This document shows positions 58,697 through 61,937 of a DNA stretch of 64,000 nucleotides, in pieces. Location: positions 3,584,001 to 3,648,000 of the forward strand of contig OZ243972.1 of assembly GCA_965214705.1 (NCBI GenBank), given 5' to 3'. The notes under the pieces are model-generated. The model was not told the origin of the DNA and did no database searches. It was given only the letters and a program-made list of their open reading frames with translations. The translations under genes were made by a program, and so were the position numbers. The first letter of the stretch is position 1. Every line of letters begins with the position of its first letter. This DNA is from Alphaproteobacteria bacterium. GTDB taxonomy: Bacteria > Pseudomonadota > Alphaproteobacteria > UBA828.

Positions 58697-58774
<78 letters not shown>

Positions 58775-58971
58775 TTTACCTCCCTCGAATTGCCCAGAGC
58801 CTCGGCCTGAGTGGTCGGTGTGCCCATGCCGCGGCGGCATAATGCGGCGGACCTCTCAAGCTGCGCAAAATTCGACGTAACTACCCAGGTACCCCGCCGC
58901 CAGATCTGAGTGCGTGCTGATGTTGGTCGCCGCCGGTGCCGTTTGTCCGTCGGCGCGTCGATGATCTGCCC

Positions 58972-59000
58972 TTGACTGTATAGGCACGCTCGCCTATGGG
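58972..59000 (+). promoter_or_regulatory. Candidate promoter of the MTase-transposase operon
   Basis: TTGACT-17 nt-TATGGG, overlapped by the inverted repeat ATAGGC...GCCTAT; GAGAGGAG RBS before the GTG at 59029. Confidence 0.5.
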
Positions 59001-59028
59001 TTGCTCTCTCGCATGAGAGGAGCAGCCG

Positions 59029-59698
59029 GTGGGGTATTTCGGATCGAAGGCGACGACCGGTCTGAGCCAGGCGCTGATTGCGCTGATGCCCCCGCACTCT
59101 GTCTATATCGAGAGCCACTTGGGGGGGCGGGGCGCTGATGAAGCGCAAGCCTGCGGCCGTGCGCTCGATCGGGATTGACCGCGACGAGCGGGCGCTTGAG
59201 TCCTTCGACTGTGGCTACCCGGTGGAGTTGGTGCACGGCTGCGCCCACTCCTTCCTGGCCTCGTTCCCGTTCCTGGGCCCGGAGCTGGTCTACAGCGATC
59301 CGCCCTATCTGCACGCGACCCGGCGTTCGTCGCAGCGCTACCGCTTCGAGTACGAGGAGGCCGACCACGTCGCGCTCCTCGAACTGCTCAAGGGTCTGCC
59401 CTGCCAGGTGATGGTCTCGGGCCACCCGTCTGCGCTCTATGACGAGTTGCTGGCGGGCTGGCGCCGGCTGGCGCTGCAGGTGACGACCCAGGCCCAGGTG
59501 CGGACCGAGGCGGTGTGGTTCAACTTCGCGCCCGACCGGGTGCACTGGGCGAGCTACGCGGGCCGCAACTTCACCGACCGCCAGCGCATCAAGCGCAAGG
59601 CGGCCAACTGGGGCCGGCGCTACGAGGCCATGCCGGCGGGCGAACGCCTGGCGGTGCTGGCCGCGATCATGGCCGTCGAGGCTGACGAGGGTTTGTGA
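59029..59698 (+). pseudogene. N6-adenine DNA methyltransferase (Dam/D12-like), +1 frameshift in a G7 tract at 59121-59127
   Basis: MGYFGSKA...LMPPHSVYIESHLGG|GALMKRKP (motif I region) and VYSDPPY catalytic motif; deleting one G gives a 222-aa ORF. Confidence 0.85.
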
Positions 59699-61236
59699 CA
59701 GTGTCGCGCTGGCACGCGGACCTCGCCGCTCACGACGAGGCTTTCGCGTGCCTGCAGGACCTTTTCACCCCACAATCCTTCGCGATGACCGCCGTCAAAG
59801 CCATCCGGGAATGGGGCCAGGGGCTGCTTCGCCTGAGCGCGGCGCTGGTCAAGGAGAACGACGCGCTGGAGCGGGAGAACGCCCGCTTGCGCGAGCGGAT
59901 CGCCGAACTTGAGCGCAGCGCCGCGCTCGACAGCACCACCAGCTCCAGGCCGCCGGCCAGCGACGGCCTGAAGAAGAAGAGCGCAGACCAGGAGAAGCGC
60001 ACCCGGAGCCGGCGCGGCAAATCCGACAGGCCCAGCGGCGGTCAGCCGGGCCACAAGGGAACCACCCTGGAGCGGACCGAGAACCCGGACCACGTCGTGG
60101 ATCATGATCCGTCCGCCTGTGAGGGCTGCGGCGCGCCGCTGTCGGACGCCGACCGTCACGGAGCCCCCGTCTGCCGGCAGGTCTTCGATGTGCCCGAGCC
60201 GCAGCCCCTCGAGGCCACCGAGCATCGCGGCCATCGCTGCCTCTGCGCCGCCTGCGGCACCATGACAACAGCCGCCTTCCCGAACGGCGTGAGCGCCCCG
60301 GTCCAGTACGGGCCGCGCATCACCGCGTGGGTGACCTACCTGCTGCACGCTCAGTTCATTCCGGAGAAGCGCGTCGCCGAGGTCATGAGCGATCTCTTCG
60401 CGGTCAAGATCTCAACGGCCACCATCGCCGCCATGGGCCGGCGCACCGCCCGGCGCTTCGAGGGCTTCCTCGATCGTGTCGCAGAGATCATCCGCACCGA
60501 AGCCCCGGTCAAACACCTCGACGAGACCGGCATCCGCATCGCCGCCCGGACCCATTGGCTCCACGTGCTGTGCACCCCGTTGCTGACCATCCTGCGCGTC
60601 GCCAGCGGGCGCGGCCATTTCGACGAGAAGCTCAACGGCATCGTCATCCATGACGACTATGCCACCTACTTCGCTCTCGAGGGCGTGCGCCACGGGGCCT
60701 GCAACGCCCATCACCTGCGTGAGCTCCAGGCCCTGATCGAGATCGAGAAGGAAGACTGGGCAACGAGCATGCACCAGCTGCTCTCCCGTGCCAACAGAGC
60801 CGCCCGCTTCGCCCGCAAGAATGATCGCGACGTGCCCGCATCGCTGGTCGCCCGCATCTCGCGAGCCTGGGACCGCATCCTCGAACGTGCCATCGCCGCT
60901 CACGAAGAGATGCCGCCGCTCCAGACCGGAAAGCGCGGACGACAAAAGCGCCGCATCGGTCACAACCTCGCGCTCCGGCTCCAGAAGTACAAGGAGGGCT
61001 GCCTGCGCTTCCTCACCGACCCGCGAACCCCGTTCTCGAACAATGAGGCGGAGCGCGATCTGCGAATGGGCAAGCTGCGTCAGAAAATCTCAGGCGGCTT
61101 CCGCTCGATGCAAGGTGCCTGCGACTTCGCCAACCTGCGGTCCGTCATCGCCACCGCTCGAAAACAGCGCTGGAATGTCCTCGAAACCCTGGCGCACCCC
61201 GATCCCATGCAGCTAATCCCGGTACTGCGCTTCTGA
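59695..61236 (+). CDS. IS66-family transposase
   Basis: Coiled coil; DSTTSSRPPASD; GGQPGHKG; CxxC...CxxC zinc region; HLDETG, HDDY, CNAHHLRE and SNNEAERDLR. Confidence 0.93.
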   Translation: MTVSRWHADLAAHDEAFACLQDLFTPQSFAMTAVKAIREWGQGLLRLSAALVKENDALERENARLRERIAELERSAALDSTTSSRPPASDGLKKKSADQEKRTRSRRGKSDRPSGGQPGHKGTTLERTENPDHVVDHDPSACEGCGAPLSDADRHGAPVCRQVFDVPEPQPLEATEHRGHRCLCAACGTMTTAAFPNGVSAPVQYGPRITAWVTYLLHAQFIPEKRVAEVMSDLFAVKISTATIAAMGRRTARRFEGFLDRVAEIIRTEAPVKHLDETGIRIAARTHWLHVLCTPLLTILRVASGRGHFDEKLNGIVIHDDYATYFALEGVRHGACNAHHLRELQALIEIEKEDWATSMHQLLSRANRAARFARKNDRDVPASLVARISRAWDRILERAIAAHEEMPPLQTGKRGRQKRRIGHNLALRLQKYKEGCLRFLTDPRTPFSNNEAERDLRMGKLRQKISGGFRSMQGACDFANLRSVIATARKQRWNVLETLAHPDPMQLIPVLRF

Positions 61237-61514
61237 AATCCCCCGCCGCTCCGCTCCACGTCAGCGGCACCAGGCCAGAGGCATCAGTCCATCACGCGTG
61301 AGTGCTCGGCGGAATCAGACCTGGGCAGTTACAATTCGACTACCATGTACGCTTGCCAAGCGACCGCAGGTATAGCAGCGTGTCGTACCGGCCGTTGGCT
61401 CATCAGCGTCTCAGCATTGGGCGGAGGGTGACGGCGGTGGAGGCCACGCGGGAACGGCTTTGGCCGGCGCGACAGCATAGCCCGCACGGCCTCTTATTGA
61501 GCGGGGACCGAAGA

Positions 61515-61937
61515 GTGAGCGCGCATCTTACCCTCAACATGGAAGCGCATCTCGACGAAATCGAGCGTATTCGCGCGGCGGTCAGGATCTTGTCGCAAGC
61601 CGAATCCTGGCCTCCCGAGCTCCTGTTTCAAATCGAGCTCGTGCTCGAAGAGATCGGCACCAACATCATAAAATACGGTCAGGACGGTGAAAGGGAGACG
61701 GACATCGATATCACCCTGACCTCCGACCGCAAATCTCTCACCCTGGAAATCACCGACAACGGCAAGCCGTTCGATCCGTTTGCCGATGCACCACCGCCAG
61801 ATCTCGACTCGGCGGTCCCGGACCGCCCGATCGGCGGGCTCGGCGTCTATCTCGTGCGCGAGTTGATGGACGAGGCCAGCTACCGGCACGAGGATGGCAA
61901 GAACAAGGTGACCCTCGTCAAGCACAAGTCGCTGTGA
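61515..61937 (+). CDS. Anti-sigma factor / RsbW-like HATPase_c protein
   Basis: LVLEEIGTNIIKY, ITDNGKPFDP and RPIGGLGVYLVRELMD. Confidence 0.88.
   Translation: MSAHLTLNMEAHLDEIERIRAAVRILSQAESWPPELLFQIELVLEEIGTNIIKYGQDGERETDIDITLTSDRKSLTLEITDNGKPFDPFADAPPPDLDSAVPDRPIGGLGVYLVRELMDEASYRHEDGKNKVTLVKHKSL

Follow-up and report, generated by a model that had tools for sequence, protein, structure and literature searches.

An ISBst12-type insertion sequence with a conserved DNA adenine methylase gene, and possible feedback of the methylase on a shared promoter

Results

A two-gene insertion sequence in the window

The window analysed here is a stretch of 64,000 nucleotides from an alphaproteobacterial genome (contig OZ243972.1, positions 3,584,001 to 3,648,000 of the forward strand). 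Positions 58877–61332 of the window are occupied by one insertion sequence (IS) of 2456 bp, in which two genes, a DNA adenine methyltransferase (methylase) gene and an IS66-family transposase gene, are enclosed by inverted ends. It is described below as an ISBst12-type element that has acquired a methylase gene and retained it over a long period, and both genes appear to be served by a promoter that came with the methylase. The features of the locus are as follows.

58869–58876, no strand: left copy of the target duplication, AATTCGAC; a single copy remains in the empty-site contig of run X5
58877–58890, plus strand: left terminal inverted repeat, GTAACTACCCAGGT; the same in 12 of 12 copies, and an end type found also in relatives
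58972–59000, plus strand: putative promoter with an embedded inverted pair, from the conservation profile of 83 distinct upstream regions
59005–59022, plus strand: possible 5′ leader hairpin CTCTC...GAGAG, overlapping the ribosome-binding site GAGAGGAG (59015–59022); RNA fold with weak scores
59029–59178, plus strand: N-terminal fragment of the methylase, 49 aa, with the start of motif I (ESHLGG); open reading frame (ORF) table, frame lost at a run of seven G (G7)
59138–59698, plus strand: C-terminal part of the methylase, a 186-aa ORF in the +1 frame, with DPPY at 59297–59308 and a basic RQRIKRKA segment; ORF table and profile searches
59695–61236, plus strand: IS66-family DDE transposase, 513 aa, GTG start; matches to PF03050, DUF6444 and NF033517
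61319–61332, minus strand: right terminal inverted repeat, reverse complement GTAACTGCCCAGGT; direct reading and comparison of 12 copies
61333–61340, no strand: right copy of the target duplication, AATTCGAC; direct reading, copy comparison and empty-site contig

The inverted ends are 14 bp long and the left and right ends match at 13 of the 14 bases, as read directly from the sequence. They were verified by eye and by script; an inverted-repeat search, which returned 457 inverted pairs, did not list them. The host genome (7.92 Mb in three contigs, 67% GC) contains 12 full-length copies of the element at 97–100% identity and, beyond these, one copy interrupted by other DNA, two relatives of 82% identity and one fragment. 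All the 12 full-length copies have the same ends, and each is flanked by a perfect 8-bp duplication of its own, the 12 duplications being different. A preliminary description of the locus, made from the window sequence, had proposed that terminal repeats and an 8-bp duplication bound a two-gene element; both were read directly here and the proposal is borne out by the other copies.

At the window insertion both junctions are bridged by contigs of the public run X1. In run X5, which carries a different organism label, a 454-nt contig joins 58868 to 61333 and skips 2464 bases. Since these bases correspond to the element plus one duplicate, the contig shows the empty target site. The window element is thus confirmed as a real, recently mobile and multi-copy insertion sequence of the IS66 family. 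A relative about 95% alike over about 59020–61332 is present in the RNA library X17, in contigs that are possibly DNA-derived and so are no proof of transcription.

The target duplications are AT-rich: their mean GC is 0.44, that of the genome is 0.67, and no value as low was drawn in 10000 resamples of random 8-mers. The AT-richness of these 8-bp targets in all the copies suggests that the element prefers intergenic, AT-rich spots in a genome of 67% GC. The window copy itself lies in the spacer between a tRNA-His gene (58698–58774, 102 bp upstream) and a downstream ORF of 211 aa (61302–61937). The two 82%-identical relatives (G000:C1:1549935-1552541 and C1:1553905-1556339, G000 being the host genome) are placed head to head with about 1.4 kb between them. 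In each, the methylase ORF (226 aa) is intact and a long open transposase frame is lacking, and the spacing at their left ends is unequal; they could be a decaying pair or a composite.

The transposase is of the ISBst12 type

The assignment of the transposase to the IS66 family, made already in the preliminary description, is confirmed by its scores of 135.3 bits to PF03050 (cut-off 23.1) and 285 bits to NF033517 (cut-off 180), with a further 41 bits to DUF6444. Its ORF is open in all the 12 copies (513–524 aa). The stop codon of the methylase (TGA, 59696–59698) overlaps the GTG start of the transposase at 59695; this GTGA junction at 59695–59698, noted earlier, recurs in nearly all of the 80 related genome loci described below.

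IS66-family elements have terminal repeats that start with GTAA and generate an 8-bp target duplication. A canonical IS66 element in the same genome encodes TnpA (HTH_Tnp_1), TnpB_IS66, and a TnpC with LZ_Tnp_IS66, zf-IS66, DDE_Tnp_IS66 (308 bits) and DDE_Tnp_IS66_C, and 52 matches to PF05717 (TnpB_IS66) occur elsewhere in the genome. The window transposase consists of DUF6444 and DDE_Tnp_IS66 and is without LZ_Tnp_IS66 and DDE_Tnp_IS66_C. Neither tnpA (HTH) nor tnpB (PF05717) was found upstream of it by the ORF table and domain search, and the methylase is the only upstream gene.

About 11 methylase-less elements of the same genome have one ORF of 496–501 aa, with 66–67% DNA identity over the transposase part; like the window element, these sisters end in GTAACTGCCCAGGT and are flanked by 8-bp duplications. 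In the transposase tree, the window element groups with one-gene elements. Among plasmid-borne elements the nearest named relatives are ISGst1 (37%) and ISGka4 (34%), from Geobacillus. ISDge4, a member of the ISBst12 group, is described in a passage of PMC12898284: it has one ORF, its ends are GTGACTACTCAGCA / GTAACTGCTCAGCA, its repeat is 8 bp long, and its transposition was observed; the same passage gives a single ORF for members of the group. The window element departs from this organization by having two genes inside its ends, and it shares with the group the kinship of its transposase and ends.

Judged by these comparisons, the element is an ISBst12-type member of the IS66 family plus an extra gene. 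The earlier suggestion that the methylase occupies the accessory-gene slot of IS66 elements does not hold: the transposase is not of the canonical TnpC type and, since its closest relatives that have no methylase carry one gene between the same ends, the methylase appears to have been added to a one-gene IS and not to have replaced tnpA/tnpB. A full-text literature search met no report of a methylase in an IS66 or ISBst12 element; ISfinder, TnCentral and REBASE lay outside this search, so that a catalogued entry is possible. With that proviso, an ISBst12-type IS with a conserved methylase accessory gene appears to be new. The IS66-family load of the genome falls into three architectures, namely the 52 canonical TnpB_IS66 matches, the approximately 11 one-gene ISBst12-like elements and at least 15 methylase-bearing copies or fragments.

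The methylase is a small relative of Dam and DpnM

The window methylase is split by a run of seven G at 59121–59127. With one G fewer the frame is continuous and encodes a protein of 222 aa, in which motif I reads ESHLGGGA. Single-sequence searches with this protein gave 14.6 bits to PF02086 (cut-off 22) and 26.1 bits to TIGR00571 (cut-off 114.85), over residues 85–154 only, and an E value of 0.54 to DpnM. A profile built from 35 homologues matched DpnM (5.6e-8), E. coli Dam (5e-5) and T4 Dam over the catalytic core. Classification of the methylase by hidden Markov models had been proposed in the preliminary description; the single sequence stays below the PF02086 and TIGR00571 cut-offs. Matches to phage DNA methyltransferase families (phrog_56, phrog_1996) and to Type II methyltransferase models were also obtained.

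In the profile alignment the N-terminus of the methylase corresponds to DpnM 17–72 and the DPPY region to DpnM 184–265. About 110 residues of DpnM (73–183) are left unmatched, and about 55 residues separate motifs I and IV in the methylase. In methylases of the alpha group the target-recognition domain is inserted between motifs I and IV, and we take the unmatched region to be the helical target-recognition domain of the solved Dam-type structures. The methylase family has instead a conserved basic C-terminal segment of about 65 residues that includes RQRIKRKA. G5, H23, G32, D90, P91, P92, H113, S130 and G131 are invariant in the 35-homologue alignment. Motif I (HLGGGA) is present in the seven copies of the genome with an intact gene and is conserved in the family, the frameshift of the window copy falling inside it. 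The DPPY motif reported earlier is encoded at 59297–59308 and is found in 80 of 80 metagenome loci. Since the catalytic residues are invariant, catalysis is very likely to be retained. The protein is thus best described from its sequence as a small Dam/DpnM-related N6-adenine DNA methyltransferase of 222 aa that is without the inserted DNA-binding domain.

The family is large. A word-indexed search returned 3769 matches (the best 120 at 71–96% identity) with proteins of about 220–280 aa, and an exhaustive search returned 6018 methylase cluster representatives at E up to 0.001. Where the sources name these relatives, the names are 'DNA adenine methylase', 'DNA methylase', 'hypothetical protein' and 'transposase' only. 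In a sample of 400 further genomes from the phylum no close full-length homologue was found and two genomes had matches of about 45%; the element is sporadic among the genomes searched. In PLSDB, 198 plasmid records have a methylase homologue, all below 60% identity, and 134 of these plasmids are typed as conjugative. The plasmid homologues are of similar length and 42–54% identical over the full length. Among them are a stand-alone gene (54%) of a Xanthomonas plasmid, located near traA/traD, and the IncP-1 gene upf31.0, annotated as 'putative adenine methylase', which is counted among the backbone genes in a passage of PMC4914505. One family member, P0126, has the N-terminal 160 residues of the methylase joined to a C-terminus resembling the end of an IS66 transposase, and looks like a deletion that fused the two genes.

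The methylase and transposase have stayed linked

The linkage of the two genes was followed in two sets of loci. For the genome set, contigs representing one genome per species were searched with the methylase, and of 266 relatives the best 80 loci (88–96% identical) were used. The metagenome set came from a scan seeded with more distant methylases, with 80 of 495 relatives used. Both sets were thus gathered by methylase similarity, and the methylase-less sample is small and haphazard.

The genome loci are labelled Alphaproteobacteria, Dehalococcoidia, Binatia and Tectimicrobiota. In 80 of 80 the methylase is followed, in the same orientation, by a homologue of the window transposase; the two genes are directly adjacent except at L044, where about 2.5 kb separate them. 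Both ends enclose both genes at 70 of the 80 loci, with perfect 8-bp duplications at 50 of these 70. The methylase ORF is at least 215 aa long in 78 loci and the transposase ORF at least 500 aa in 62. Among metagenome loci with at least 150 bp of downstream sequence, an IS66-family transposase adjoins the methylase in 70 of 75, as checked with Pfam on three types; the five exceptions comprise one locus with another IS inserted, two with short flanks and two beside host genes. Both ends, GTAACTACTC(A/G)CCCC, are present 2.23–2.34 kb apart at 40 metagenome loci, six of which have perfect duplications. These ends came from the alignment of upstream regions; a generic inverted-repeat search of the metagenome elements found none.

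The preliminary description had held that the methylase moves with the IS and had proposed a search for further copies with both genes and different target duplications. The 12 copies of the genome, the 70 genome loci and 40 metagenome loci with both ends, and the recurrence of the gene pair in both sets give the result that it foresaw.

Between lineages the methylases are 65–82% identical and the linked transposases 26–34%. The number of synonymous substitutions per site (dS) between methylases of different lineages is 0.8–1.9, so that their similarity does not come from recent exchange. Within the window lineage, the ratio of nonsynonymous to synonymous substitution (dN/dS) is 0.12–0.30 for the methylase and 0.15–0.57 for the transposase, the near-identical pair L045/L075, which has hardly any substitutions, being excluded. 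Strong purifying selection has maintained the methylase during the divergence of the linked transposases to about 30% identity.

In the methylase tree the 18 IS-borne methylases form one clade with a support of 96, which excludes the IncP-type genes and has the gene of the Xanthomonas plasmid as its sister. The shallow groups of this clade match those of the transposase tree, in which four methylase-less elements are sister to the methylase-bearing clade of the window. These four rows were met by chance, a short row (L076b) was left out, and the deep forks of the transposase tree are poorly supported, with long branches. The simplest reading of the two trees is a single capture of a plasmid-type methylase by an ISBst12-type element, followed by long co-descent and at least one later loss, and a methylase that evolves several-fold more slowly than the linked transposases.

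Some loci differ from the common pattern. L032–L043, from two chromosomes of one alphaproteobacterial metagenome-assembled genome, amount to about 11 copies with distinct duplications, all with an intact 230-aa methylase. Their transposase is spread over three frames in tblastn, with a longest ORF of 338–339 aa, owing either to two frameshifts inherited by all the copies or to systematic errors of long-read assembly. At L163 (3501–4172) an IS-type methylase is followed by a multihaem cytochrome gene and at L182 (664–1341) by a solute-binding protein gene, with no transposase next to either; these may be solo or domesticated copies, or truncated elements. At L130, L132 and L148, downstream of the methylase, the IS66 transposase gene has another IS (an ORF with DUF4277) inserted within its 5′ part or directly behind that part.

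A conserved inverted pair lies in the promoter

When the left ends of the metagenome-type elements were aligned, a block on the inner side of the end, ahead of the start codon, proved to be sharply conserved. The profile of this block was made from 157 upstream regions anchored on TTGAC alone, which avoids circularity; 152 had the anchor, and 83 of them were distinct. The consensus over the 83 regions is TTGACA-N2-CATAG-N10-CTATG, with TTGACA at positions 1–6. Positions 8–12 (CATAG) are conserved at 0.87–1.00 and positions 23–27 (CTATG) at 0.84–1.00, and positions 13–22 are near random (0.05–0.65 bits). Positions 24–29, TATGCT, constitute a −10 hexamer at the canonical spacing of 17 bp; its −11 A corresponds to position 25, where A is invariant. 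CATAG and CTATG form a perfect inverted pair; the C at position 23 and the CATAG are not required by sigma-70.

In the window the corresponding parts are a −35 element TTGACT (58972–58977), TATAG (58979–58983), CTATG (58994–58998) and a −10 element TATGGG (58995–59000). A candidate promoter inside the left end had been proposed before. It is conserved across the 83 distinct upstream regions, but a strict sigma-70 consensus scan of 58700–61500 called no promoter. This is because the −10 element here is TATGGG, and the promoter call hence rests on conservation.

The pair is found also with the plasmid homologues. CATAG-N10-CTATG lies upstream of the Xanthomonas gene; in four related IncP-1 plasmids and in Pseudomonas pBYT5-1 the arrangement is TTGACA-N2-CATCG-N10-CGATG, and in a Methylorubrum plasmid a CATCG/CGATG pair is at another position. 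The middle base is altered in both halves together, which argues for the pair being one recognition event read on both strands. Since the layout is the same upstream of the plasmid homologues, the promoter would belong to the methylase gene and have become the promoter of the transposase as well; by this comparison, the methylase brought its own promoter, and in the IS it serves both genes. No description of the promoter motif common to the IS and IncP-1 upf31.0 was met in the literature search.

Upstream of IncP-1 upf31.0 itself (L200, IncP-1beta pB8, 2399–2460; also L205 and L207) there are two GCATCG-N10-CGATGC pairs, one on the promoter and the other about 46 bp further upstream, in an operator-like arrangement that was not met in a full-text search on upf31.0.

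Between the promoter and the methylase start, the leader may fold into the hairpin listed above (−14.6 kcal/mol, z −1.9), the z-scores for the leader hairpin overall being weak at −1.4 to −1.9. The metagenome-type elements have an analogous hairpin of other sequence (TTGATCC...GGATCAA), which also overlaps the ribosome-binding site.

GATC and the element ends

The preliminary description had pointed to GATC at 58903 and 58963 in the left end and to Dam control of transposition as an analogy. Both sites are present; conservation of the 58903 site does not extend to the other ten related left ends, and the 58963 site is kept in 7 of 11. GATC was therefore rejected as the control site, the conserved adenine-bearing motif being the CATAG-N10-CTATG of the promoter, and the analogy is not supported. 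In the ends of the window lineage neither CTATG/CATAG nor GATC is conserved, and CTATG occurs at 58994, 59437 and 60657 only. A methylase target in the element ends was likewise rejected, as no motif is common to the ends and the promoter in this lineage. The terminal GTAACTAC was also considered as a methylase-linked feature and discarded, for the methylase-less sisters have GTAACTAC too.

Two subfamilies differ in the integrity of the methylase

The frameshift of the window methylase, mentioned in the preliminary description only in passing, separates the copies of the genome into two kinds. An alignment of the 12 copies has 82 variable columns that divide them into two subfamilies. The G7 subfamily comprises five copies including that of the window, which are 99.96–100% identical and have private substitutions in common. 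The other seven copies have six G at this place (G6), with a methylase ORF of 222 aa that is intact in each. In the contigs of runs X1, X5 and X17 only G6 is found at 59121; as contigs lose minority variants, they neither confirm nor refute G7 independently of the assembly. The perfect linkage of G7 to 12 subfamily substitutions argues that the allele is real.

In relatives, the HLGGGA codons contain G runs of 2–6 and vary freely at synonymous positions. Programmed frameshifting or phase variation at the G run was ruled out, since the run is not conserved at the nucleotide level; for the same reason G7 appears to be an ordinary mutation fixed in one subfamily. The five-copy subfamily nonetheless spread, after or despite the loss of its methylase, presumably because methylase and transposase came in trans from the seven intact copies.

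Discussion

A possible feedback of the methylase on the shared promoter

The reading we favour is that of a methylase-bearing ISBst12-type IS whose methylase feeds back on the promoter it shares with the transposase. Taken as a whole this falls a little short of an even chance. Its descriptive part is near certain, and the feedback step lies somewhere between doubtful and evenly balanced.

Host Dam methylation controls IS10, IS50 and IS903, and adenine methylation over a transposase −10 element would couple expression to the methylation state. By the same logic, which applies to host Dam with IS10 and IS50 and to the self-regulating methylases of restriction-modification systems, the methylase could act back on the shared promoter, either by methylation of both half-sites, at the adenine of CTATG on each strand, or through binding to the pair. 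One of the methylated adenines would be the −11 A of the −10 element. An element that arrives unmethylated in a methylase-free cell would then express both genes strongly and undergo a burst of transposition, until the build-up of methylase shuts expression down. As methylation would act in trans, all the copies would be silenced together, which would amount to copy-number sensing, and passage of the replication fork would reopen a brief window of expression. Methylation of the genome as a whole would be a by-product, as would any protection from restriction.

A bolder form of the proposal is possible but somewhat unlikely. It makes the element a self-contained epigenetic switch, in which its own methylase methylates the −11 A and the mirrored site, so that it fires in naive cells and at replication and is silenced in trans in proportion to copy number. 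As a transposon-encoded equivalent of control by host Dam, the switch would predate the divergence of the linked transposases to about 30% identity and would have been retained ever since; it would also explain the promoter design in the upf31.0-type methylases of broad-host-range plasmids.

Several points weigh against the feedback. The target sequence of the methylase is a guess from promoter conservation. The 15 bp between the centres of the half-sites would suit a simple dimeric repressor poorly, and the C at −13 and the CATAG might be there for a different factor. The window lineage has TATAG as its left half and a weak −10 element, TATGGG, the strict scan calling no promoter, and the pair is absent in 3 of the 10 plasmid homologues examined. 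Methylase-less sisters with the same ends have at least ten copies in the genome, and ISDge4 is reported in the passage cited above to transpose experimentally without a methylase (PMC12898284). As the one-gene sisters and ISDge4 move without it, the methylase is not needed for the chemistry of transposition. The youngest burst, that of the five near-identical copies, belongs to the methylase-defective subfamily, which fits the loss of a brake and equally fits irrelevance of the methylase. The G7 allele is absent from the run contigs, which have G6 only, though contigs do drop variants. Finally, the collection of loci by methylase similarity inflates the apparent conservation of the methylase.

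Other roles for the methylase

The methylase may instead be beneficial cargo, for instance with an anti-restriction function like that of its plasmid relatives. It would modify host DNA and outgoing plasmid or phage DNA, and so protect it from matching restriction or blunt incoming restriction-modification systems; the IS would be kept because the hosts or vehicles that carry it do better, and the promoter pair would be the inherited regulation of the methylase, the promoter having been borrowed by the transposase. We regard this as somewhat unlikely, though it is the main rival to the feedback. The closest relatives outside the IS are solitary plasmid methylases, mostly from conjugative plasmids (134 of the 198 PLSDB records), the Xanthomonas gene lies near traA/traD, and the methylase matches phage (phrog_56) and Type II methyltransferase models. 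The one-gene sisters transpose well without a methylase, and the methylase-defective subfamily spread nonetheless. However, cargo genes of insertion sequences are usually sporadic and short-lived, whereas this methylase stayed linked as one clade while the transposases fell to 26–34% identity. It is intact more often than the transposase (78 against 62 of the 80 genome loci), is always upstream in the same operon, often with a stop/start overlap, and is retained by nearly all the copies, although a single copy per cell would protect. Long retention and the fixed position in the operon argue against pure cargo.

A direct role in transposition appears improbable. In the manner of Dam with IS10 and IS50, the methylase might mark the donor copy or the ends, allowing old copies to be distinguished from new ones or replicated DNA from unreplicated; or it might assist the transposase at the GTAAC termini by binding DNA or flipping bases. 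Its expression is coupled to that of the transposase, and its very high conservation is reminiscent of TnpB, the small and conserved accessory protein of canonical IS66 elements; the terminal GTAACTAC is moreover common to elements whose transposases are about 30% identical. The same termini are found in the methylase-less sisters and in ISDge4, and thus independently of the methylase. In the window lineage the ends have no conserved CTATG/CATAG or GATC, and the invariance of the catalytic motifs makes a purely structural role unlikely.

Chance juxtaposition, or a decayed methylase pseudogene left between the IS end and the transposase, might be suspected from the frameshift in the window and from the Pfam and NCBIfam scores below cut-off, but it is excluded by the seven intact sister copies, the gene pair at 80 of 80 genome and 70 of 75 metagenome loci, the low dN/dS of the methylase (0.12–0.30), the DPPY in all 80 metagenome loci and a G run not conserved at the nucleotide level, which makes the frameshift a local mutation.

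Significance

Insertion sequences are usually defined as carrying only what their movement requires. The ISBst12 group is the plainest branch of the IS66 family, with one gene, and here a methylase is a stable, selected part of the element in hosts whose labels span several phyla. It exceeds the transposase in conservation, and as the first gene of the transposase operon it follows a promoter that contains a conserved symmetric motif. Should the methylase control this promoter, the element would be a transposon with its own epigenetic brake and copy counter, and a model of self-limitation in hosts that have no Dam. If the methylase is cargo, a multi-copy IS would be an overlooked route for the spread of orphan methylases, by which bacterial methylomes and restriction barriers are reshaped. 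Either way, a recognition sequence containing CTATG is predicted for a very large family of small methylases that includes upf31.0.

Comparison with known systems

The element resembles the ISBst12 group (ISBst12, ISDge4, ISGst1, ISGka4) in having an IS66 DDE enzyme without tnpA/tnpB, ends that begin GTAACT(A/G)C and an 8-bp duplication, ISDge4 serving as the example. Unlike that group, it has a second conserved gene, the DNA adenine methylase with its putative own promoter, upstream of the transposase, and the identity of the transposase to the named plasmid-borne members is merely 34–37%. With canonical IS66 elements it has in common the DDE_Tnp_IS66 domain, the 8-bp duplication, ends starting with GTAA, and the presence of small upstream coding sequence overlapping the transposase gene. 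It differs from them in the lack of an HTH TnpA and of TnpB_IS66, and in a PF03050 score of 135 bits against 308 bits for the canonical element of the same genome.

In its intact form the methylase has motif I (xLGGGA) and motif IV (DPPY) as in Dam and DpnM, which are of the D12 class and the alpha group. Unlike these, it is without about 110 residues between the two motifs, has the basic C-terminal segment instead and scores below the Pfam and TIGRFAM cut-offs. The orphan plasmid methylases, such as IncP-1 upf31.0, are of the same length and the same family, and 7 of the 10 examined have a promoter with an inverted pentamer pair over the −10 element. These stand alone in plasmid backbones, whereas the IS methylase heads a transposase operon, and the half-site is CATCG in the upf31.0 type as against CATAG for the IS methylase.

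The proposed control would resemble that of IS10, IS50 and IS903 by Dam in that adenine methylation overlaps the −10 element of the transposase promoter. In those elements the methylase is that of the host and the site is GATC; here the element's own methylase would act, and the conserved sites are not GATC. Unlike IS10 and IS50, the window lineage has no conserved site in its ends, and the pair at which its methylase may act lies in the promoter of the operon that the methylase gene heads.

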